64,000 nucleotides of DNA from positions 576,001 to 640,000 of the forward strand of contig CAVYSW010000010.1 in assembly GCA_963771275.1 (NCBI GenBank), in the 5' to 3' direction. Source of the stretch: an uncultured Gemmatimonadales bacterium (GTDB taxonomy: Bacteria; Gemmatimonadota; Gemmatimonadetes; Gemmatimonadales; GWC2-71-9). This document shows positions 26,614-64,000 of the stretch, piece by piece. Numbering within the stretch: position 1 is the first letter of the stretch; every line of letters begins with the position of its first letter. The notes under the pieces were generated by a model, which saw nothing but the letters and a program-made list of their open reading frames with translations, searched no databases and had not been told where the DNA came from. Both the position numbers and the translations under genes were made by a program.

Positions 26614-26696
26614 TGCCCGAGGAGGGAGTCGAACCCACACGGCCTTGCGGCCACGGGATTTTGAGTCCCGCGTGTCTGCCATTCCACCACTCGGGC
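26614..26696 (-). tRNA. tRNA-Leu (anticodon CAA); CCA not encoded
   Basis: GCCCGAGTGGTGGAATGGCAGACACGCGGGACTCAAAATCCCGTGGCCGCAAGGCCGTGTGGGTTCGACTCCCTCCTCGGGCA; long variable arm. Confidence 0.96.
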
Positions 26697-51902: not shown

Positions 51903-52667
51903 CTACGGCTTCTTCAGGAAGTCCTCGATCGCCTTGCGGAAATCCGGGGTCGTCCGCGCCGCGGCGTTCACGGCGGCCCCGAGCCGGATGCCCTCCTCGA
52001 AGCCCCGCCCATCCAGTTCATAGAGCTGGCGCTTGATCAGCGCCAGGGCCGACGCACTCGCGGAAGCGAGCTGGCTCACGATGCCGGCCGCTTGCTGGTC
52101 GAATTCAGCCGCCGGCAGCACCCGCGACACCAGGCCGATGGCGCCTGCCTCGGCCGCCGTGAGCAGCCGGCCGGTGGTCACCAAATCGAACGCGACCCTC
52201 TCCCCCACGATGCGCCGCAGCATCGCCATCACCATGGCGGGCACGAACCCGCGACGCACCTCCGGGTAGCCGAACTGGGCGTCCGCATGTGCCAGGATCA
52301 GATCGCACGCGGTGGCGAGACCGCAGCCGCCCGCCAGGACGCGGCCGTGTACCAGTGCCACCACCGGCTTGGGCAGCTTCCGCATCCGGACGAACACCTC
52401 GCCGAGCCGGGCCGCGCTGCGGGCGTTCTCCTGGGGTGACCGATCCGCCGATGCGAGCAGCTCCGCGAGGTCCACGCCGGCGCAGAAGTCTTTCCCGGCT
52501 CCCCGCAGAACGACGACCCCCACTTCCTGATCGAGGTCCGCCCGCTCGAGCTGCGTGAGCAACGCTTCCACCATGGCACTGTCGATCGCGTTCCGCTTGT
52601 CAGAGCGGTTGAGCGTGAGCGTGAGGACTCTGCGCTCCAGCGTGACCAGCAGCCGGTCAGCCGACAT
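51903..52667 (-). CDS. Enoyl-CoA hydratase, methylglutaconyl-CoA hydratase-like
   Basis: FCAGVDL, AGGCGLATACD and YPEVRRGFVPA motifs. Confidence 0.85.
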   Translation of the reverse strand: MSADRLLVTLERRVLTLTLNRSDKRNAIDSAMVEALLTQLERADLDQEVGVVVLRGAGKDFCAGVDLAELLASADRSPQENARSAARLGEVFVRMRKLPKPVVALVHGRVLAGGCGLATACDLILAHADAQFGYPEVRRGFVPAMVMAMLRRIVGERVAFDLVTTGRLLTAAEAGAIGLVSRVLPAAEFDQQAAGIVSQLASASASALALIKRQLYELDGRGFEEGIRLGAAVNAAARTTPDFRKAIEDFLKKP

Positions 52668-53016
52668 CGAGATCCTCCGGGACGTCGATTTCCATTCTGA
52701 GCAGCGCCGTCGAGAACACCTTGCCCTGCGCGTCGGTCTTGAGCGAGAGGGTGCCGCCCCCGCCGAGCGCCCCGTGCAGCAGGAAATTGAGGGCCCTGAG
52801 GTTGGGAAGCTCGTAACGCTCCACCGGTCCCGTGATGACACCCTGAAAGTGACGCGTCACCGCCTCGACGGTCACGCGTGCCCGGAGCAGCGGATAGAGC
52901 TCGGGCCGGAGCGCGATCAGCCCCACGTTGGCCGTATCGCCTTTGTCGCCGCTCCGCGCATGCGCGAGGTAGCGCAGCTGAACCTTCCTGACCAACGCCC
53001 GCCGTTTGGCTCCCAT
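52657..53016 (-). CDS. AtuA C-terminal (ferredoxin-fold) small protein
   Basis: AHARSGDKGDTANVG, ALNF, LGGGG and DAQGK motifs. Confidence 0.85.
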   Translation of the reverse strand: MGAKRRALVRKVQLRYLAHARSGDKGDTANVGLIALRPELYPLLRARVTVEAVTRHFQGVITGPVERYELPNLRALNFLLHGALGGGGTLSLKTDAQGKVFSTALLRMEIDVPEDLDVG

Positions 53017-53039
53017 CCGCTCCCCTGTTCTCCTCCGCC

Positions 53040-53066
53040 CTGCCGCCTCTGCGGCTCCTGCCGCTA
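53040..53066. repeat. 9-mer tandem repeat (CTGCCGCNN)x3 containing the AtuA-family gene stop codon
   Basis: ctgccgcct ctgcggctc ctgccgcta; 24/25 identical to 27670-27694. Confidence 0.75.
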
Positions 53067-54434
53067 CGCCTCTACGATCTCGACCCGTGCCGATACCTCC
53101 GACTTGGGCATCAACGCCGGCCAATACGCCACGATCTCCTCGACCTTGGGCCGCCCTCCCGCGAAACCCGTGACGCTGGGCGGTCCGTTGAGGATCAGCG
53201 GGGCGATCTCGCGCGTGAAGCGCTCGACCGGCGCCTTCTTGCGCGCGCGCACGCCAACGCGGAGCTGCACCTCCGGCAGGTCCGGATTCGGTGGTCCGGC
53301 GAGCCGCCCGTGGGTCGCTCCGGCCCCGACGAACTCGGTGAGCGTCTCTTCGAACGTGAGGCCAAGGCGGTCGAGCCGCTGGCGCAGGATCCGATCCGCC
53401 GCCCGCGCCTTTTCGTACGCGTCGGGCCAGGCGTAAACCAGCGTCCCCACGGCCTTGTAGCCGTAGAAATACGAGACCGAGACCTTGAGGAATGGGGTTG
53501 CCGGCCGCCCCGTGATCCCCGACACGCGGACGCGGTCGCGGCCCTGCTGCGCGAGCCGGATCGTCGTGAAATCCGCGATCACGTCGGGGGTGATGTAGCT
53601 CCTGGGGTCGCCCATCTCGTAGAGCAACTGCTCGGTGATCGACGCCACCGAGATCCGGCCACCCGTCCCCGGGTGCTTCGTCACCGTGAAGCGGCCATCC
53701 GGGGTCGCCTCGATGATCGGGTAGCCGGGATTCTCCATGTGCGGGATGTGGTCCCAGTCCACCAAGCAGTTGCCGCCGGAGCACTGCGCGCCGCACTCGA
53801 TGATGTGCCCGGCGACCGTCCCTGCCGCCAGGCGGTGCCAGTTGTCCGCCCGCCAGCCGAACGCGTGCATCATCGGCGCCAGGGTGAGCCCGGTGTCGGT
53901 GACGCGGCCGGTGATCACCACGGTGGCGCCCCGGTCCAGCGCCTCCACGATGGGCGCCGCGCCGAGGTAGGCGTTGGCGGACAGCACGCGGTCCCGCACC
54001 GTGCTGAGGGGCTCGCCCGTTTCCATGTTCGCGAGCGGATGGCCCCGCGCCGCGAGCTCGTCCAGGCGGTCGAGCAGGTCGTCGCCGGTGACGATGCCGA
54101 CACGGACCCGACCGTCGAGACCGCGACGCCGCGCCGCTTCGAGCAGCGCGTCGGCGCAGGCGCGGGGGTTCACGCCTCCGGCGTTGGCCGTGACCCGCAC
54201 GCCGTGCTCCACGAGATCCGGCAGCAGGCGCTCCATCAGGGGCACGAAGTCCTTGGCGTATCCCAGCGAGGGGTCCCGCGAGCGCTGCTTCTGCATGATG
54301 GACATCGTGACTTCGGCGAGGTAGTCCATCATGAGGAAGTCGATTGGCCCGCCGGCAACCTGCCGGGCGGGAGCCTCGAGCCAGTCGCCCCAGAACCCCT
54401 GACCGGACGCAATGCGAATCGGGCCGTGCGTCAT
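53064..54434 (-). CDS. Acyclic terpene utilization AtuA family protein (DUF1446)
   Basis: [38 protein letters not shown] and YITPDV motifs. Confidence 0.9.
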
Positions 54435-54448
54435 CCGTCCGCCGTCGC

Positions 54449-57271
54449 TCACCGCGTGTCGCCCGCGGACATGGTGGAGGATGGCAGGATCACGCGGTAG
54501 GCGGTGGTGGGCCGGTCGTCGGCGCGGAGGAGGATCTCGACGAACGGGTCGAACCCCTCGGCCCCCGCGGACGCTGGCATGTGCCAGGCAACCGGAACCG
54601 TGGTGTGTGCCGGCATCGTGACGTCGGCTTCGGCGAACGGCAGGGGATCCTCCCGCAGGAACGCCACGGTGACCGTGGCGCTCCACGGCGTCGTGTCGTG
54701 CGGGAAGGTGAAGGCGGGCAGCAGCTCGAGCTCGATCCGGCGCGGCGTGAGCGAGTCGAGGGAGACATAGTGCCGGCCGGCGCTGTGATCCAGCGGCATC
54801 TCGGCGACGAGCGCCCCCGCCGAATCCCACAGCGAGACGGCGAAGTCCGTGATGTGGGACCACACCGCGTGATCCACCCGAACGTCCACCATGAGCCTGA
54901 CCGCCCACTCGGGAACCCGGAGCGGGACCGTGCGCCGTACAGTGCCCCGGCCGGCGACGACCTCGCGCTTGGCCGTCCCGATGAGGCGGGCCCGGACGGA
55001 CGCGCTCGCCGGGTCTGCCGAGGTGTTGGCTAGCGTGACGCCGTCCGGCGCCGCGGCGACGCGAACGGGCGCGAGCGCTGCCGCGAGCTCGACCGTCGTT
55101 GCCTCATTGGGCGGCGCGATCGCGACCGCCTCGTACACGCCTGCCAGGAGATCGTCCTGACGCACGGTGAGCCGCGCCGTGTCTCCGAGCTCCCCGCCCA
55201 CCTCCGCGGAGGGGCTCTCGACGAGCGGGCGCCCGGAGGGCTCGAACAGGAAGAGGCTGGCGCGCTGATCGGGATCTGCGATGCGTGCCTCGACCGAGAG
55301 GCCGCCCGCCCCCGAGGGGACCCGGAAGAAGAACCGGGCCATCTGGCCGGCCTTGAGGTGCTGGCGCGCCGTGAACGGCTGGTCGAGCGTGTACGGCACG
55401 ACCACCGCGTTCGTGAGTCCCAAGACGGCGCCCCCCAGCGTGTCGCTCGCCGGACGCGCCCACACGGTGCCGACGTACAGTCCCGGCACCTGGAGAGCGG
55501 CGGCGGCGTAGGTCAGCTGGACGGTCACCGGCCCGGGGCCGAGGTCTATGGCGTCCGGGGTGTGGAGCCACGGGGCGTCCGACCGGAGCAGCAAGCGCGG
55601 CGCGGGTGGGCTTCCCACGGGTGCGATGCTGAACCGTTGCACGGTGTCGCCCGTGGACGCGAGGCCGTCCCGCCGGTAGGCCGCGGTGGCCCACGGGGTG
55701 TCGGTGCCGCTGTGCAGCGCCCGCACGGCGAACCGGCCGCCGCGATGCCCGGCTTTGAGCCAGCGCCACGCGGCCGCCACGTTGGGCACCCCCGCGCCCT
55801 CGTCGAGCGTGGTGGCGCCGGGGATCGGGCGGGCCGTGGCCTTCAGCGCTGCCGTCACGTCGGCCGATGACGCGGGACGCCCGCCCCCGGCGATCGCCGC
55901 GGACTGGAGCAACGCCGCCGCGCCGCTGAGCTGTGGGGCGGCCATGCTCGTCCCGCCGGCGACCTCCTCCCCCTCGTCCCACGGTGGGACGTTGGAGAAC
56001 GCGACGCCCGGGACGCACAGGTCGGGCTTCTGCACGCTGCCGCCGCGGCTGCTCCACCAGCCGAGCACGTCGTCCGGCGAGCGCCCGCCGGCCTGCGGCG
56101 GCTTGGCGAACACCCCGGGGAACAGCGCGCAGGCGGAGAGCGCGAAGTCGGCGGATCCGGGGAAGCCGATCGTGGAGATGCCCGGCCCATCGTTGCCGGC
56201 GCTGATCACGATCGTGACGCCGGGGTGCTCGACCGCATAGGCGTCGAGCACCGAGTCGATCAGGGCACGTCCGGCGGCGGCGTCGTTCCCCACGCCGTAG
56301 CTTAAGTTCAGCACCAACGGCATGCCGCCCCGCGCTGCGTAGTCGGCGGCGTAGGCGATCGCGCGGACCATCGAGCCCGTCACCGACACGCCGCCCCGGG
56401 CGTTGTTCGCGATCTTGAGACCGAGGAGCTGCGCGCCGGGCGCGATCCCGTCGAACCCGGCGACCCCGAACAGGTCGTGGCCGGCCGCGATGCCGGCGAC
56501 GTGCGAGCCGTGCCCCGACGTGTCGAAGAAGAGATCGAGCGTCGGGCGCGCGGCGACACTGCCGAAGTTCGCCGCGAGGGTGAGCGGCCCGAACGCGAAC
56601 GTCTCCGCCGCGGTCGCGTAGTCCCGGATCGGGACCTCGTCGGTGAGCGACCCGTCGCCGTCGGTATCGGCCATCACGAACCAGCCGTCACTCGCCCGTG
56701 CCACCACGAGCGGCAGGCGATCCCGCGCGTCGCCGTCCCCGTTGACGTCGGCGGCCGGGGGCGCGCCCAGGCTCGCCTCGTCGAGCGTCCCCCCGTAGTA
56801 CGGCGGCAGCGCCAGCCGCACAACGCGCCCGAACCCGCCGAGTCGTCGGCCTTCCACCGTCACCGCATCCCCGTCGGCGGTGATGGGCGTGAGCGCGATG
56901 CGTCCCTCCCCGGAGAAATCCCGGAGATCCGCGAGCTTGCGGTCGCCGGTCGTGGTGCGCCGCAGTCCGGGAAGTCCGGCGTCGATGCCGCTGTCGAGGA
57001 TCGCGATCAGCACGCCCCGGCCGTCGAACTCGGCGTTGGCCGCGAGAAACTGCTCGGCCCCGGTCACCCGGCGCGGCAGCAGGCCCAGGAGCATCGCGGC
57101 CTGGGGCGGGAGCACGGGTTTCCCGGGCACCGGGAGGGCCACGGCGCTCTCGTCGACGGCGACGGGTGCGGGCCCCGCTTGCCAGGGCGCGGGCGTGCGG
57201 GAGGCGCACGCGGCCGCGACGCACAGACTCCCCGCCGCGACCACCAGACCGCGGGGGGGGCGTGGGCTCAC
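54449..57271 (-). CDS. S8 subtilase lipoprotein, tripeptidyl-peptidase II-like
   Basis: Lipobox AAAC; triad motifs ILDSGID, HGSHVAG and GTSMAAP; oxyanion [10 protein letters not shown] overlaps the upstream stop. Confidence 0.85.
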
Positions 57272-58884
57272 GGACCGGTCTCGGGGATGGTAAACGCGCC
57301 CAGGTGTGGGCCGCCGTAGGAGCTGCAGGCCCGCAGCGTGAGCGCGAGCATGTCCCGGGTCTCCTCCGGCAGCAGGATGGCGTCCACGAAGCCGCGCGCG
57401 CCGGCGAACTTGGCATCGAGTTGGTGCTCGTAGTCGGCGCGCATCCGCTCGACCGCCTCCTCGGACTGCTTGTCGTTCACCTTCGCGCCGAACACGGCCT
57501 GCACCGCCGACTCGCCCTCCATGACCCCCATCCGACCGGTCGGCCACGAGAGCAGGAAATCGGGATCGAAGCCCTGCCCGGCCATCGCGTAGTAGCCGGC
57601 GCCGGAGGCGTGGTTCACGGTGAGGACGATCTTCGGCACCACCGTCGTCGCCATCGCTTCCACAAAGCGTGCGCCCGCGCGAATGATGCCGGAGTGCTCG
57701 GCCTCGGGGCCGACCATGAACCCGCTCACGTCCTGGACGAACAGGATCGGGAAGCGCTCGCGGCTCGCGTTCTCGATGAAGTAGGCGACCTTCTCCGCGC
57801 TCTCCGTGTAGACGATGCCGCCAAACCGCGGCCGCTCACCGGCCCGGGCCTTGATGATGCCCCGCTGGTTCGCAATGACGGCCAGCGGGTATCCCTTGAT
57901 CGCGCCGTGGCCGCAGATCATCTCCGCGGCGATGTCCGGCTGGAACTCGTCGAGCGCCCCGTCGTCGAGCAGGCAGGCCAGAAGCTTGCGCGCGTCGTAC
58001 GCCATGCGATGGTCGTGCGGCAGGATCTCGTACAGCGCGGTCGCGGGCTGGCCGGCGGGTCGGGTGGCGTCGCCGCGGCGCGGCGCGAGGCCACACGCCG
58101 GCGTGGGCAGGCGGGCGACATACTCCCGAATGCGCGCGAGGCAGGCGGGGTCGTCCTTCGCGCGGTAGTGCGCGACGGCGCTGATCGCGGTGTGGGTCAC
58201 GGCGCCGCCCAGCTGCTCGCCGTCGACGGTCTGTCCCGTCGCGCCCTTCACGAGATTGACGCCGCCCAGCCCCATGAACGACGTGCCCTCGACCATGTAG
58301 ATCACGTCGGACAGCGCGGGCAGATAGGCGCCGCCCGCCACGCACGGGCCCATCACGGCGCTGATCTGCGGCACGTGGAGGTAGCGACGCATGATCGAGT
58401 TGTAGTAGAAGATCCGCGCCGCGCCGTACTGGCCCGGAAACACGCCGCCCTGGTAGGGCAGGTTCACGCCGGCGGAGTCCACCAGGTAGATGATCGGGAT
58501 GCGCTGCCGCATCGCGATCTCCTGGGCGCGGAGGATCTTCTTGATGGTCTCCGGCCACCACGACCCGGCCTTCACGGTCGCGTCGTTGGCCACGACGACG
58601 ACGTCGCGGCCGCTCACGACTCCGAGGCCGGTAACCACGCCGGCGCCCGGCGCCTGCCCGTCGTACTGGTCGTACGCCACCAGCAGTCCGACCTCGAGCC
58701 ACGGTGTGTCGGGATCGCGCAGCCGCGCGACGCGCTCCCGCGCCGTCAGCTTTCCCTGATCGTGCTGTTTCTTGATCTTGTCGTCCCCGCCGCCGCGCTC
58801 CAGCCGGGCGGCCAGCGCGCGGTACTCGTCCGCCAGCGCGCGCAGCCTGCTCCGTGAGCCGGAGCCCTTGGGGGCGTCGCTCAC
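57268..58884 (-). CDS. Acyl-CoA carboxylase carboxyltransferase (beta) subunit, MCC/LiuB-like
   Basis: [36 protein letters not shown] and GAGYYAM motifs. Confidence 0.92.
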
Positions 58885-59300
58885 GAGTCGCGTCGCTGGA
58901 CGGCCGTGCGGATGAAGCCGATGATCTCGGCGGTCGGCGTGCCCGGCCCGAACAGCTTGGCGACGCCCTGCCCCTCGAGCACGACGGCGTCCTCCTGGGG
59001 AATGATGCCACCGCCCAGCAGGACCACATCCCCGCGGCCCGCGTCGTTCAGCAGGCGGCGGACGCGCGGAAACAGCGTCATGTGGGCCCCGGAGAGGATC
59101 GAGAGTCCCACCACATCCACGTCTTCCTGCACCGCGGCGTTGGTGATCATCTCCGGGGTCTGATGCAGCCCGGTGTAGATGACCTCCATTCCGGCGTCCC
59201 GCAGGGCGGCCGCGACGACCTTGGCTCCGCGATCATGCCCGTCCAGGCCGGGCTTGGCCACCAGCACGCGGATCGGGCGCTTGGGCTCGGCAGTGGTCAT
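58881..59300 (-). CDS. Acyl-CoA mutase cobalamin-binding small subunit (IcmB-like)
   Basis: [10 protein letters not shown] (DxHxxG), SILSGAH, GGIIP and FGPGT motifs. Confidence 0.92.
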
Positions 59301-59342
59301 GGTGGGGGCAACCTAGTGTTGGCGTACATGCGGCACAAGCGA

Positions 59343-60590
59343 TCAGGCGAGCTTGAACCGCAGCAGCGCGGCCATGCCGTCCACCTGCCGCCGCGCGGCG
59401 GCATCCTCCACGACATCGACGTGCGCGCTCTGGCGCAGGGCGTCCTCGATGGCCTCGTCCACGACGTCCGGAACGGGGACCGTGTCGTCGCGCCCGGCGC
59501 AGGCGTCCGGTGAGATGCTCAGCCGTCCGCCCGCGCCGCAGCGGAACCCGGGGCGCTCGACGGACGGGTCGACCAGCAGGGTGCGCACCTGGCCGCGTCC
59601 CAGCGCCTCGAGCGTCGGCTCCAGGCCGTTGACCGCCCAGCCCTCGCCGCGGCCTTCCACCAGCTCGCGTACGTGACGCTGCTCCCAGGCGCGCTCCTGC
59701 TCCCGCCGGATGTCGAGCACCGCCTGCAGCACATCGTTGGCCGACGCGCTCTTGGGGTTGAGCCGCACCGTGCCGAGCACCGATTCGCGCACGTACGGGT
59801 GCAGGTGGGGCCCGACCGCCCCCACGTCCGCGCCCATCCCGGCCAGCACGATGCCCTGCACCGGCAGGTCGCGGGTCACCTCGAACAGCCGCTGCGCGAT
59901 CTGCGCGTAGTGGCGCTGCTTCTCTTCCCGGATCCGCTGGTTGAATCCGTGCTCGCCCGGCGCGGACGCACCGACTCCCCGTCCGTGCGGCCGGCTGGGA
60001 CGGCTGGGACCGTGAAACCGACCGGCCCGCGTCGTCTCCCCCGCGGAGAGGCTGGGCAGCTCCGCCGCGCCGGCAGGCGTCACTTCGAAGAAGCGCGCGC
60101 TGGTGCGGTCGTAGGCGACGCACAGCATCCGGCCGAACTCGTCGTTCAGCGCCGCCAGCTCGCGGACCAGCGGGGTGTGATCGACGACGAGCCGCGAGCG
60201 AAACACCACCGGCAGGGGAATCGGCTCGAACAGCTTGAGCGGCTCGCAGGCGAACACCGCGATACCGCGGCCCGCCGGGAGGTTCGACGGATGGGCCAGG
60301 TAGTCGCGGATCCGCTCCAGATCCCGCCCGACCGCGAGCCGGGCGGCTCGTCCGAGGCCCCGCGCCTCGAGCCCGGCCGTCAGCGCCTTGATCCGGTTCT
60401 TCAGCTTGATCAGGTACTTCCCGTGACCCCGATCCCGCGGCTCCAGCTTGAGGTAACAGGACACGACGCCGTGCTCGGTCGCGCCGAGCGCCGTGAGGCG
60501 CTCGATCAGCGGAGTGAGGGTGGCGGCCTGCGTCCCCGGATGGTCGGCCCCCGAGGTACGCCTAGAAGAAGACCGGTTCGCGATAGGCAC
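59343..60590 (-). CDS. Bacterial aeRF1-like (baeRF) protein lacking GGQ
   Basis: N-domain VVSCYL...GIAVFA; M-domain RIREEKQRHY...IVLAG; L7Ae-like C-domain AVNGLEPTLEALGRGQVRTLLV...GMAALLRF; GTG 60590 preceded by GGAGGAGG. Confidence 0.8.
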   Translation of the reverse strand: MPIANRSSSRRTSGADHPGTQAATLTPLIERLTALGATEHGVVSCYLKLEPRDRGHGKYLIKLKNRIKALTAGLEARGLGRAARLAVGRDLERIRDYLAHPSNLPAGRGIAVFACEPLKLFEPIPLPVVFRSRLVVDHTPLVRELAALNDEFGRMLCVAYDRTSARFFEVTPAGAAELPSLSAGETTRAGRFHGPSRPSRPHGRGVGASAPGEHGFNQRIREEKQRHYAQIAQRLFEVTRDLPVQGIVLAGMGADVGAVGPHLHPYVRESVLGTVRLNPKSASANDVLQAVLDIRREQERAWEQRHVRELVEGRGEGWAVNGLEPTLEALGRGQVRTLLVDPSVERPGFRCGAGGRLSISPDACAGRDDTVPVPDVVDEAIEDALRQSAHVDVVEDAAARRQVDGMAALLRFKLA

Positions 60591-62205
60591 CGTACACCTC
60601 CTCCAACGCGTGCCGAATCTCGTACAGCGTGCAGTACGCACGTGCGCAATCCAGCATCGCGGGAATCACGTTGTCGTCACGCGCGGCGGCGGCCCGCAGC
60701 TCCGTCAGGCAGCGCCGCGCGCGCTCGTTGTCTCGCCGCGCCCGCAACTCGCCAAGGCGCCGGCGTTGCTGCTCGTCCACCGAGCTCCCGATCCGCAGAA
60801 TCTCGACCGGCGCCTCGTCCTCGGTCACGAACTCGTTCACGCCGACGACGATGCGCCGCTTCTGCTCCACCTCGTGCTGAAAGCGTCGCGCGCTCTGGGC
60901 GATCTGCTGCTGGAACCAGCCCGTCTCGATCCCGCGTGGGACGCCGCCGAGCTTTTCGATCTCGCGGAACAACCCCTCCGCCTCCGCCTCCATCCGATCC
61001 GTCAGGGCCTCGACGAAATACGCTCCGCCGAGCGGGTCGATCACGTTGGGGACGCCGGTCTCGTGCGCCAGGATCTGTTGCGTCCGCAGGGCCAGCCGCG
61101 CGGCGTCTTCCGTAGGGAGGGCGTACGTCTCATCGAGCGAATTGGTATGGAGCGACTGGGCACCGGCGAGCACTGCGGCGAGCGCCTGGTATGCGGTGCG
61201 GACCACGTTGTTCATCGGCTGCTGCGCGGTGAGCGAAACCCCGGCCGTCTGGCAGTGGAACCGCATGATCATCGTGCGGGCGTCGGTCGCGCCGTACCGG
61301 TCGCGCAGGTGGCGCGCCCAGATCCGGCGGGCGGCGCGCATCTTGGCGACCTCCTCGAACAGGTCGTTGTGCACGTCCCAGAAGAACGACAGGCGCGGCG
61401 CGAACCGGTCGAGGCCGAGTCCGCGCGCGAGGCCACGCTCGACGTACTCGAACCCGTTGGCGAGGGTGAACGCGAGCTCCTGCGCCGCCGTCGCTCCCGC
61501 CTCGCGAATGTGGTAGCCGCTGATCGAGATCGTGTTCCACAGCGGGGTGTGCTCCGAGCCCCACTCGAACATATCCACGATGATCTTGAGCGCCGGCTCG
61601 ACCGGGTAGACCCAGGCGTGCTGCGCCATGTACTCCTTGAGAATGTCGTTCTGCACAGTGCCGCGGAGCGCGCGGATGTCCACCCCCTGGCGCTCCGCCG
61701 CGGCGACGTAGAAGCAGAACAGCATGGCCGCCGGGCCGTTGATCGTCATCGACGTGGAGACCTGGTCCATCGGGATGCCGTCGAACAGCGCCTCCATGTC
61801 GGCGAGCGATGAGATCGCCACGCCGCACATCCCGACCTCCCCTTCCGCGCGGGGGTGGTCGGAGTCGTACCCCATCAGCGTCGGGAAGTCGAACGCGGTC
61901 GAGAGCCCGGTCTGACCGTGGGCCAGCAGGAACTTGAACCGCTGGTTGGTATCCTCGGCGGTGCCGAACCCGGCGAACTGCCGCATCGTCCAGAGCTTCC
62001 CGCGGTACATCGTGGGGTGGACCCCCCGCGTGAACGGGAAGGCTCCCGGATCGCCGAGCCGCTCGGCGTAGCTTCGGTGCGCGAGGTCTTCCGGCACATA
62101 GAGCGGCTCGACGGGTGCCGAGCTCTGGGTGATGAACTCGCCCTCCCGCTTGGGCGCCGCCTCGTACGCCTCCCGCCACTGGCGATGGTTGTCACGGCCG
62201 TCCAT
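60562..62205 (-). CDS. B12-dependent acyl-CoA mutase large subunit with isobutyryl-CoA mutase signature (IcmA-like)
   Basis: PFTRG, WTMRQFAGFG, QNDILKEYMAQ, SISGYHIRE and SLHTNSLDE motifs. Confidence 0.9.
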   Translation of the reverse strand: MDGRDNHRQWREAYEAAPKREGEFITQSSAPVEPLYVPEDLAHRSYAERLGDPGAFPFTRGVHPTMYRGKLWTMRQFAGFGTAEDTNQRFKFLLAHGQTGLSTAFDFPTLMGYDSDHPRAEGEVGMCGVAISSLADMEALFDGIPMDQVSTSMTINGPAAMLFCFYVAAAERQGVDIRALRGTVQNDILKEYMAQHAWVYPVEPALKIIVDMFEWGSEHTPLWNTISISGYHIREAGATAAQELAFTLANGFEYVERGLARGLGLDRFAPRLSFFWDVHNDLFEEVAKMRAARRIWARHLRDRYGATDARTMIMRFHCQTAGVSLTAQQPMNNVVRTAYQALAAVLAGAQSLHTNSLDETYALPTEDAARLALRTQQILAHETGVPNVIDPLGGAYFVEALTDRMEAEAEGLFREIEKLGGVPRGIETGWFQQQIAQSARRFQHEVEQKRRIVVGVNEFVTEDEAPVEILRIGSSVDEQQRRRLGELRARRDNERARRCLTELRAAAARDDNVIPAMLDCARAYCTLYEIRHALEEVYGAYREPVFF

Positions 62206-63235
62206 CGTGCATCTCCCTTCTGACTCCCGCCAGAATGCGGTGTGCCAGCTCGTACGGGTTCACGCGGTCATGCGCAGCGGCGGCCAGCCCGGACCGCAAC
62301 CTCTCCTCCCCGCCCCCTTCCTCCCATACCAACTGGCGCAGGCGGCGATCCACGACCTCGCGGGTGTGGCGCGCGAGCCGGTCGCGGCGCCGCCGGGCGA
62401 GCTCCCCGCTGGCGCCGAGATACGCCGCGTGCCGCTCGATCGCCTCGACCAGCTCCGGCACGCCCTCGTCCCGCAGCGCGGACAGGGCGAGGGCCGGCGG
62501 CTCCCAGTCCGGGGGCGCCGCGGGGCCGGACGTCGGCGCAGGCGGCGCGGCCTCGGGTCGGTGGTGGGGGGCGACGTGCCGGAAGGCGTTGCCACGGCGG
62601 ATCCCCAGCATCACTTCGATCTCGTTGCGCAGCCGGTCGGCGCCGGGGCGATCCGCCTTGTTGATCGCGTAGATGTCGGCGATCTCCATCACGCCGGCTT
62701 TCAGAACCTGCACCCCGTCGCCCGACTCCGGCACCAGCACGAGCACCGCCGTGTCCGCCGTGGCGGCGATCGTGAGCTCTGACTGGCCGACCCCCACCGT
62801 TTCGATGATGATGCGATCGAACCCGAAGGCGTCGAGCACGTCGCACACTTCGCGCGTCGTCGTGGCCAGGCCTCCCAGCTCCCCGCGTGTCGCCATGGAC
62901 CGGATGTAGACGTCCGCATCGAGCGACGCCGACTCCATCCGGATCCGGTCGCCCAGCAGCGCCCCACCCGTAAACGGGCTCGTCGGATCCACCGCCACCA
63001 CCCCCACGGTCCGGCCGCGCGCGCGATAGGCGTGGATCAGGCGCTCCGCAAGGGTGGACTTGCCGGCCCCCGGCGGCCCGGTCAGCCCCACCCGGTGCGC
63101 CCGCCCCACCTGGGGGTGCAGCGCCGACAGCAGGTCCTCATACCCCGGCCGGCCGTTCTCGACCATCGAGACGGCGCGGGCGAGCGCCGGAATCTGGCGC
63201 GCCGCGATCCCGGCGAGCAGGTCAGCCGCTGGCAT
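62192..63235 (-). CDS. meaB: MeaB/ArgK GTPase chaperone for B12 mutases
   Basis: GPPGAGKST, DPTSPFTGGALLGDRIRM, ETVGVGQSE and NKAD motifs. Confidence 0.95.
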   Translation of the reverse strand: MPAADLLAGIAARQIPALARAVSMVENGRPGYEDLLSALHPQVGRAHRVGLTGPPGAGKSTLAERLIHAYRARGRTVGVVAVDPTSPFTGGALLGDRIRMESASLDADVYIRSMATRGELGGLATTTREVCDVLDAFGFDRIIIETVGVGQSELTIAATADTAVLVLVPESGDGVQVLKAGVMEIADIYAINKADRPGADRLRNEIEVMLGIRRGNAFRHVAPHHRPEAAPPAPTSGPAAPPDWEPPALALSALRDEGVPELVEAIERHAAYLGASGELARRRRDRLARHTREVVDRRLRQLVWEEGGGEERLRSGLAAAAHDRVNPYELAHRILAGVRREMHDGRP

Positions 63236-63277
63236 ACCGGAAGCTCACGGGCGCCATCGGCTTCTCGCAAGCGCGGC

Positions 63278-63937
63278 TCATGCGCCGCGATCCCGGAACA
63301 GGTCCTCGAGGTCGAGGCCGCGCCGCATGGATGGCGCCCCCAACTCGTCCGGCGCCACGGAGCCCGCGGAGATGATGAACTTCACGGCGTCCTCGATCGA
63401 GATCGCCGTCTCGCGAATCTGATCGCGGGGGACCACCAGCATGAAGCCGGTCGTCGGGTTGGGGGTCGTCGGCACGAAGACATTGACGCACGGCCGGCCC
63501 AGTACCCGGGTCATCGCGGCGGAGTCGTCGTTGGTGATGAAGCCGACCGACCAGAGGTGGTCGCTCGGAAAGGGAACGAGCACCACCCGCTTGAACACGC
63601 GACTCTGGTCGCTGAGGATGCCCTGCACGATCTGGCTGGCCGCGTTGTACAAGCGGCCGGCCACGGGAAAGCGGACGAGCGTCTGATTCCAGGTCTGCAG
63701 CAGGCGGCGTCCCACCGCCCGGTGGACCACCCACCCCACCCCGAGCACGACCAGCCCGAGCAGCACGAAGCCGAGCCCCGGGATGCGCACCTTGAGCGCC
63801 GCCTGCAGCGGCTCCCCGAGAATCGCGTCGACCGTCTCGAAGATCCACCGCAGCACCACGACGGTGAACCCCACCGGGGCGATCACCACGAGGCCGACGA
63901 GGAAGTAGCGGCGCAGCCGCAGCATGGCCGGCGCCAT
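63278..63937 (-). CDS. DUF502 membrane protein
   Basis: Two N-terminal TM segments; FVPTTPNPTTGF and IISAG motifs. Confidence 0.9.
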   Translation of the reverse strand: MAPAMLRLRRYFLVGLVVIAPVGFTVVVLRWIFETVDAILGEPLQAALKVRIPGLGFVLLGLVVLGVGWVVHRAVGRRLLQTWNQTLVRFPVAGRLYNAASQIVQGILSDQSRVFKRVVLVPFPSDHLWSVGFITNDDSAAMTRVLGRPCVNVFVPTTPNPTTGFMLVVPRDQIRETAISIEDAVKFIISAGSVAPDELGAPSMRRGLDLEDLFRDRGA

Positions 63938-63939
63938 CG

Positions 63940-64000
63940 TCAGAGTCCCGCCACCGTCACGCGGGCGGTGCCGGCGCGCCGGACGACGAGGCGCTCAACC
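63940..64000 (-). CDS. C-terminal fragment of an upstream gene (partial)
   Basis: Open frame ...VERLVVRRAGTARVTVAGL* ending 2 nt before the DUF502 ATG. Confidence 0.4.
   Translation of the reverse strand, partial: VERLVVRRAGTARVTVAGL

Follow-up and report, generated by a model that had tools for sequence, protein, structure and literature searches.

What is a gene for a release-factor-shaped protein doing between the genes for the two subunits of a vitamin B12-dependent acyl-CoA mutase? The question is raised by a stretch of 64,000 nucleotides (the window) from an uncultured Gemmatimonadales bacterium (GenBank assembly GCA_963771275.1, contig CAVYSW010000010.1, positions 576,001 to 640,000 of the forward strand), in which a protein of the baeRF type, the bacterial homologues of aeRF1 and Pelota, is encoded between mutL and mutS, the genes for the large and small mutase subunits. 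We consider it likely that this protein is a Balon-type factor of baeRF family 10, acting at the ribosomal A site, that is co-expressed with an operon for a mutase resembling isobutyryl-CoA mutase (ICM) or 2-hydroxyisobutyryl-CoA mutase (HCM). A protein of release-factor shape would then occupy the A site without recognising a stop codon or releasing a peptide, and its presence there would silence and protect the ribosome. We infer ribosome binding and a hibernation role for the window protein from homology; co-transcription is likewise presumed, and the link to the mutase would be one of co-expression rather than of a shared biochemical task.

Balon-type factors were reportedly described only in 2024. 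The type of protein is therefore known; its position between mutase subunit genes, shared throughout a family of soil Gemmatimonadota, is not described in the literature searched, in which, as the earlier note on this DNA had anticipated, we found no paper linking baeRF and mutase genes. The main text of PMC6514570 contains none of the words mutase, methylmalonyl, B12 and Gemmatimonad, and those of PMC10901736 and bioRxiv 10.1101/2025.11.04.686544 contain neither mutase nor Gemmatimonad. One paper that mentions Balon, hibernation and a mutase together (PMC10500699) appears to be unrelated. In the supplementary text of PMC10901736 that was searched, which does not cover the Balon homologue datasets, Gemmatimonad, mutase and methylmalonyl have 0 occurrences.

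Family assignment and fold of the baeRF protein

From the sequence alone, the earlier note had read this open reading frame (ORF) as a Balon-like baeRF with a three-domain aeRF1 layout, and had proposed assignment to baeRF families by hidden Markov models and comparison of an AlphaFold model with Balon and aRF1 as checks. Both came out in favour of this identity. The protein scored 50.6 bits against the Pfam model baeRF_family10 (PF18854), above the cut-off of 27.1, which places it in that family, and its best matches in NCBIfam were three families of ribosome hibernation factors (MSMEG_1130, Rv2629 and AOC03_06830). When sequences in the Protein Data Bank (PDB) were searched, the best match was Msmeg1130, annotated as Balon, which aligned over its full length with an E value of 3.8e-7 for the single sequence and 2e-8 for a profile of 26 sequences; it was followed by eRF1, aRF1, Pelota and Rv2629.

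An AlphaFold2 (AF2) model built from a 109-row alignment had a mean predicted local distance difference test score (pLDDT) of 91.6 and a predicted template modelling score (pTM) of 0.86, and was weak only at residues 1-25 and in a loop at about residues 181-210. Foldseek ranked Msmeg1130 first for this model (E 1e-23). The top six chains in VIA-align were all Balon, with Z of 19.4-26.7 and a root-mean-square deviation (rmsd) of 4.2-5.0 A; Msmeg1130 reached Z 26.7 at an rmsd of 4.4 A (365/375 residues), Balon of Psychrobacter urativorans Z 21.2-21.5 and Rv2629 Z 19.4. Behind them came eRF1 and aRF1, with Z of at most 16.5 and an rmsd above 10 A, and Pelota, which aligned partially with Z of at most 12.9. 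The N domain, the central RNase H-like domain and the C domain (Pelota, L7Ae-like) of the aeRF1 superfamily can all be recognised in the model and in its full-length matches to Balon, aRF1 and eRF1. The model and the fold matches therefore indicate an aeRF1-like fold in the domain arrangement of ribosome-bound Balon. With a pI of 9.3 the protein is basic, and many of its arginine and lysine residues are invariant.

The closest of the known systems is Msmeg1130, the Balon homologue of Mycobacterium smegmatis (PDB 8v9j and 8v9l; NF052288), with which the window protein shares the three-domain aeRF1 fold, the domain arrangement, the lack of GGQ and NIKS and a C-domain insert of similar length. 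It differs from Msmeg1130 in being only 22-23% identical, in having its own G-E-H loop and N-domain block, and in lying in a mutase operon instead of a hypoxia or stress locus. Fold and loss of the release-factor motifs are also shared with P. urativorans Balon (PDB 8rd8, 8rdv and 8rdw; NF052287) and Rv2629 (8v9k; NF052289), but identity to these is 16-17%, and where their HP motif, lasso loop and bL27 trap would lie in the window protein could not be located. Family 10 of the baeRF-1 clade, as set out in the text of Burroughs and Aravind 2019 (PMC6514570; PF18854), resembles the window protein in the two-strand insert that replaces the zinc ribbon, and resembles its paralogues in the association with HPF, which that text reports for baeRF. 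It is described there as having a well-conserved glutamine, whereas the mutase-linked lineage has an invariant glutamate at the conserved position of the loop. Common ancestry with aRF1/eRF1 and Pelota/Dom34 is apparent from the three domains and from alignment of the middle and C domains (E 3e-5 to 2e-3); the window protein differs in lacking GGQ and NIKS, and the whole-chain fit is poor.

The gene between mutL and mutS, and its relatives elsewhere

On the minus strand of the window the genes run in the order meaB-mutL-baeRF-mutS-carboxyltransferase. The GTG start of the baeRF gene at 60590 lies 29 nt ahead of the end of the mutL stop codon (60562), so that the overlap of the two genes that had been noted is real, as is the Shine-Dalgarno sequence inside the mutase gene (GGAGGAGG, 60604-60597). 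The sole longer version of the ORF begins at a GTG at 60641. GTG 60590 is the credible start because no further ATG, GTG or TTG codon occurs before the first conserved helix. Residues 1-25 are disordered in the AF2 model. Relatives differ in this stretch beyond its first nine residues, (M/V)P(T/I)ANRSSS, which are conserved because the same DNA encodes in another frame the C-terminus of the mutase (...YREPVFF and stop); this C-terminus is equally conserved in relatives without a baeRF ORF.

Start positions could be compared at 77 related loci that have a complete mutL 3' end. At 41/77 a start codon precedes the end of the mutL stop codon by 29 or 32 nt and is followed by an open frame as far as the conserved part; at ten the frame is open at these positions and has no start codon there, at 25 another frame is used, and at one a stop codon intervenes. 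GAGGAGG followed by GTG was found again at 20 of the 77. The gene is not a chance ORF, since the search brought up more than 1,900 homologues and conservation within the family is high (mean column identity 67%, alignment A1).

Scanning species-representative genomes yielded 80 loci, every one titled Gemmatimonadota apart from one metagenome-assembled genome (MAG) labelled Bacillota, with identity to the window protein down to 46%. The conservation of the order mutase-baeRF-small subunit, which the earlier note had put forward for checking, was evident here. It can be seen that mutL lies directly upstream of baeRF at 76/77 loci with readable upstream sequence, and mutS downstream at 64/65 loci with at least 1.3 kb readable; the position is thus not unique to this genome. 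L055 (6001-9520) accounts for the missing locus in both counts; its baeRF gene is without mutase genes on either side and has a carboxyltransferase gene downstream. This sequence is nested among the mutase-linked sequences in a tree (support 96), so that its mutase context was probably lost secondarily.

We also sampled 301 genomes across the phylum, counting matches and not copy numbers. A baeRF match was present in 116/124 genomes of the window's own family (f1), in 3/3 of a second family (f3) and in 4/70 of a third, the sister family f2, where the matches were weak. The 30 best loci of this sample all have the order mutL-baeRF-mutS-carboxyltransferase. At the f3 loci mutL is upstream in all three and mutS downstream in both of those with a long enough contig. 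Most f1 genomes list a single match, and the window's genome has only one baeRF copy, plus a short HPF gene far off on the same contig. One internal TGA was flagged in many matches of the phylum sample, and a selenocysteine or read-through reading was rejected when translation placed it as the terminal stop at the match end. In one MAG an in-frame TAG interrupts an otherwise conserved baeRF gene at match residue 300 (L025:6898-6900); the gene may have been inactivated recently, or the codon may be a sequencing error.

The gap between mutL and mutS also accommodates other genes. Among five f2 genomes examined, three have an orthologous mutL (71% identical) adjoining meaB and no baeRF. In one of these a 289-residue S-adenosylmethionine (SAM)-dependent methyltransferase is encoded between mutL and mutS, its start overlapping the mutL stop (L136:3114-3983, plus strand), and the other two mutL loci have no mutS within 1.5 kb. 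In one f1 subclade a HAD-family hydrolase gene of about 230 codons lies between baeRF and mutS on the same strand, as at L031:7128-7835 (loci L028-L031, L033-L037, L039, L041-L045, L047-L049 and L051; Pfam-confirmed for L031 and L028 only). Unrelated genes are thus able to settle in this gap.

Some related genomes have a second baeRF copy at 37-44% identity, and in one genus there is a copy at 35-39%. None of the 12 paralogue loci (L114-L121, L129-L131 and L133) has mutase genes. Within about 3 kb their neighbours include genes for BON, Usp, S30AE/HPF and CBS proteins (four loci each), Hsp20 (three) and RtcB (one); the S30AE/HPF genes lie within 3.2 kb, and three of the four are fused to a cold-shock domain (CSD; L117:6230-7012, L118:3047-3649 and L133:4235-4786). 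These neighbourhoods match the published contexts of Balon-type genes, which are stress loci with Hsp20, OsmY, RaiA and RtcB according to the text of PMC10901736 and include HPF in that of PMC6514570. The stress-response surroundings (RaiA/HPF, Hsp20, OsmY/BON, RtcB) are thus found around the paralogues and not around the window gene. More distant relatives from other families of the phylum (L125-L128, 26-29% identical) have a gene for a YacP-type NYN nuclease nearby in three of four cases, for RtcB in three of four and for archease in one of four, which is an RNA-repair neighbourhood. For the paralogues and these distant relatives alike, baeRF_family10 is the best Pfam model.

A quick LG+G4 tree was calculated from 46 rows, namely 29 mutase-linked loci spanning the identity range, the window protein, L055, 11 paralogues (the truncated L133 was omitted) and four distant sequences as outgroup. 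All the paralogues grouped together (support 99), and their clade had a weak connection (87) with some of the mutase-linked sequences. The tree makes clear that the mutase-linked group and the paralogues are close kin, but it does not reveal which events came first.

We propose that the gene came to lie between mutL and mutS in one Gemmatimonadales lineage (f1 and f3) by descent from one ancestral arrangement. It is probably transcribed with the catabolic mutase operon. The 29-nt overlap and the Shine-Dalgarno sequence within mutL probably also tie its translation to that of the large subunit. The position might instead have no regulatory meaning, if the gene entered a split-mutase operon only once, at a gap open to insertions, and was then inherited at a tolerable level of expression. 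The acceptance of hydrolase and methyltransferase genes by the gap is what this would predict, one ancestral placement with vertical descent would explain the well-supported paralogue clade and its weak join to the mutase-linked sequences, and Rfam found no riboswitch in the window. We nevertheless regard such neutrality as unlikely, because the order is kept in nearly every readable locus and the gene in nearly all sampled f1 genomes. The kept order, the overlapping starts at more than half of the 77 loci and the mostly single match per f1 genome argue that expression from the mutase operon is under selection.

The earlier note had gone further and suggested that the gene might link carbon or B12 status to ribosome dormancy. 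This idea found no support, Rfam having detected no cobalamin riboswitch in the window. Since the gap holds unrelated guests, the paralogues lie in stress or hibernation loci and there is no such riboswitch, co-expression as an inherited passenger is the more economical reading, and any tie to B12 or carbon status is still conjecture. The presumed function of the protein family is unchanged by the finding. A factor fixed in a metabolic operon, and often the sole match in its genome, would provide a natural test of hibernation tied to a nutritional programme.

Conserved motifs and alternative roles

Motifs were compared in a mutase-linked set of 82 sequences, comprising the window protein and the 81 loci that remained after removal of L055, of duplicates and of matches that covered less than 340 residues of the query. 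The class-1 release factors aRF1 and eRF1 are marked by the catalytic GGQ and the stop-codon-reading NIKS. As the earlier note had pointed out, neither string is present in the window protein; GGQ occurs in the loop of 0/82 sequences of the set, and NIKS anywhere in 0/82. The loop is not, however, featureless. HMMER pairs HGRGVGAS of the window protein with HGRG-GQSA of eRF1 in a stretch that varies among relatives in sequence and in length, the loop measuring 24-46 residues across the 82 sequences. Directly after the variable stretch come an invariant G212-E213 pair and an H214 that hardly varies, followed by [FY][NH]xRIRxEKQRH[YF]. Counting back from the shared start of the R-[IL]-R-E-E-K helix, G-E is displaced by one residue from the G-Q of the eRF1 GGQ. 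The motif GE[HRYGF] is present in 81/82 mutase-linked sequences and in 11/11 paralogues. All 11 paralogues carry a PG(W)GE loop and more distant relatives a weaker G-x-x-E form; the loop is therefore a trait of the family and not peculiar to the mutase-linked genes.

A second conserved element, at residues 43-66 of the N domain, is rich in basic residues and at least 90% conserved in the mutase-linked set; in the 11 paralogues conservation is confined to four positions. This block is the clearest feature that is specific to the mutase-linked group. Cysteines are found at residues 45, 115, 157, 351 and 364. The last two lie in the C-domain insert, in agreement with the two that had been counted there before, and are conserved in at least 90% of 109 sequences. 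The insert aligns with the corresponding segment of Msmeg1130 with one single-residue gap. In the AF2 model it forms a beta-hairpin of the kind with which Balon contacts EF-Tu, and it might bind EF-Tu here too.

Several of these observations weigh against a simple transfer of the Balon model to the window protein. The scores against all three NCBIfam Balon-type equivalog models fell short of their cut-offs (NF052288, 95.2 against 480 bits; NF052289, 44.1 against 320; NF052287, 42.8 against 330). Scores so far below the cut-offs place the protein in a separate subfamily. The text of PMC10901736 describes an HP motif in the N domain of Balon that contacts A1492 and A1913; its position could not be mapped onto the window protein. 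There is an H100-P101 pair, in which P101 is at least 90% conserved in alignment A1 and H100 is variable. The loop at about 181-210 has block-mean pLDDT values of only 60-77. The surroundings of the gene are metabolic, with mutase and acyl-CoA catabolism, and not the stress context of Balon. Finally, the invariant G-E-H site and the group-specific block of 24 residues show constraints beyond the Balon model. The subfamily, with its G-E-H loop and conserved N-domain block, is a distinct one for structural comparison.

In an extended version of the proposal, a shut-down of translation would be built into the catabolic programme and the mutase-linked subfamily would have a ribosome-binding mode or a second partner unlike those in the solved Balon structures. 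Coupling to mutL would then deliver a fixed dose of an A-site blocker whenever B12-dependent breakdown of branched-chain or terpenoid acyl-CoA is switched on, and the N-domain block and the G-E-H loop would confer the differing binding mode or the second partner. We consider this combination distinctly unlikely.

It is also conceivable that the protein is a catalytically active rescue factor, in which the G-E-H loop stands in for GGQ and acts on the peptidyl-tRNA of stalled ribosomes. The near-invariance of this loop so close to the eRF1 register, in mutase-linked proteins and paralogues alike, would suit such an activity, and the text of PMC6514570, by Burroughs and Aravind, names family 10 in particular as one that may be active. 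The site, though, has no glutamine; the stretch before the motif is of the variable kind that the same text associates with inactive families; the model fits ribosome-bound Balon far better than it fits eRF1; and the solved relatives of Balon are reported in the text of PMC10901736 to keep the peptidyl-transferase centre inert. A rescue activity of the window protein is therefore very unlikely.

We find it highly improbable that the mutase-linked copy has been recruited to the enzyme, for example to assist subunit assembly or cofactor exchange alongside MeaB, and no longer works mainly on ribosomes: a position kept in nearly every readable locus down to 46% identity, the commonly overlapping start, a block conserved only in the mutase-linked group and the single copy in the window's genome would all agree with this, but the three aeRF1 domains, the basic character and the paralogue-type loop are all retained, the slot also hosts the hydrolase or the methyltransferase, the orthologous mutL-meaB pair of family f2 does without any baeRF, L055 lies beside a carboxyltransferase gene without mutase genes, and the N-domain block, being basic and almost invariant, suits rRNA as a partner no less well than a protein. 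A complex prediction with the mutL and mutS products and baeRF residues 27-282, from alignments of 35 rows each and without controls, gave a score of 0.01 against a mark of 0.32 and is evidence neither way. We conclude that nothing in the analysis supports a role of the baeRF protein in the mutase enzyme, and the reading as a Balon-type A-site factor expressed with the mutase operon is retained.

The mutase and its neighbouring genes

The coordinates of the baeRF gene, its conserved elements and the adjoining genes are shown in Table 1.

Table 1. The baeRF gene of the window, its elements and the genes around it (position 1 is the first nucleotide of the window).
Feature	Position	Strand	Description and basis
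Balon-like baeRF gene (P0001)	59343..60590	-	415 aa, GTG start, TGA stop; ORF and translation, Pfam, AF2, fold matches
Shine-Dalgarno sequence GGAGGAGG	60597..60604	-	Inside the mutase large-subunit gene, 6-nt spacer to GTG 60590; read from sequence
Overlap of mutL 3' end and baeRF 5' end, 29 nt	60562..60590	-	Coordinates and sequence
Loop at GGQ-equivalent site, residues 202-223, HGRGVGASAPGEHGFNQRIREE	59922..59987	-	Invariant G212-E213, near-invariant H214; no GGQ
N-domain block, residues 43-66, VSCYLKLEPRDR.R.KY.IK.KNR	60393..60464	-	At least 90% conserved in 82 mutase-linked sequences
C-domain two-strand insert, residues 348-364, Cys351 and Cys364	59499..59549	-	At the aRF1 zinc-ribbon site; DSSP strands 348-351 and 356-358 (AF2 model)
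MeaB-type G-protein chaperone (meaB)	62192..63235	-	Pfam MeaB 318 bits, TIGR00750; 14-nt overlap with mutL start
B12 acyl-CoA mutase large (substrate-binding) subunit (mutL)	60562..62205	-	547 aa, ICM/HCM-like; Pfam MM_CoA_mutase 732 bits
Mutase small (B12-binding) subunit (mutS)	58881..59300	-	139 aa; Pfam B12-binding, TIGR00640; begins 42 nt past baeRF stop
Acyl-CoA carboxylase carboxyltransferase subunit	57268..58884	-	Pfam Carboxyl_trans 413 bits; GTG overlaps mutS stop by 4 nt

Against PDB sequences the mutL product scored best with HcmA (4r3u, 561 bits), followed by human methylmalonyl-CoA mutase (MCM, 510), MCM of P. shermanii (485) and IcmF (309); HcmA is a 2-hydroxyisobutyryl-CoA mutase. 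The signature of MCM, Tyr89 and Arg207 in P. shermanii numbering, is absent. Residue 89 was located through the single difference between 5req and 1req, and the window protein has F77 (RQFAGF) at this position and Q195 (YMAQHAW) at that of Arg207, the arginine of FMVRN. Phenylalanine and glutamine at these two sites form the ICM-type pair. The operon mutase is therefore, as far as its sequence indicates, ICM/HCM-like rather than a classical MCM.

A promoter scan of 56500-64000 returned 0 sigma-70-like sites. The same region contains three weak terminator-like sites, two of them within mutL, which is at chance level (1.3 expected from shuffles), and none was seen between the genes of the operon. 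In the Rfam search of the whole window the sole family at the gathering threshold was one tRNA (26614-26696, minus strand).

The genes to the 3' side of the carboxyltransferase gene, at 51903-57547 and on its strand, suggest an acyclic-terpene or branched-chain acyl-CoA pathway: an S8 subtilase (a large ORF of up to 1032 aa whose start is uncertain), AtuA, a protein with an AtuA ferredoxin-like domain and an enoyl-CoA hydratase are encoded there.

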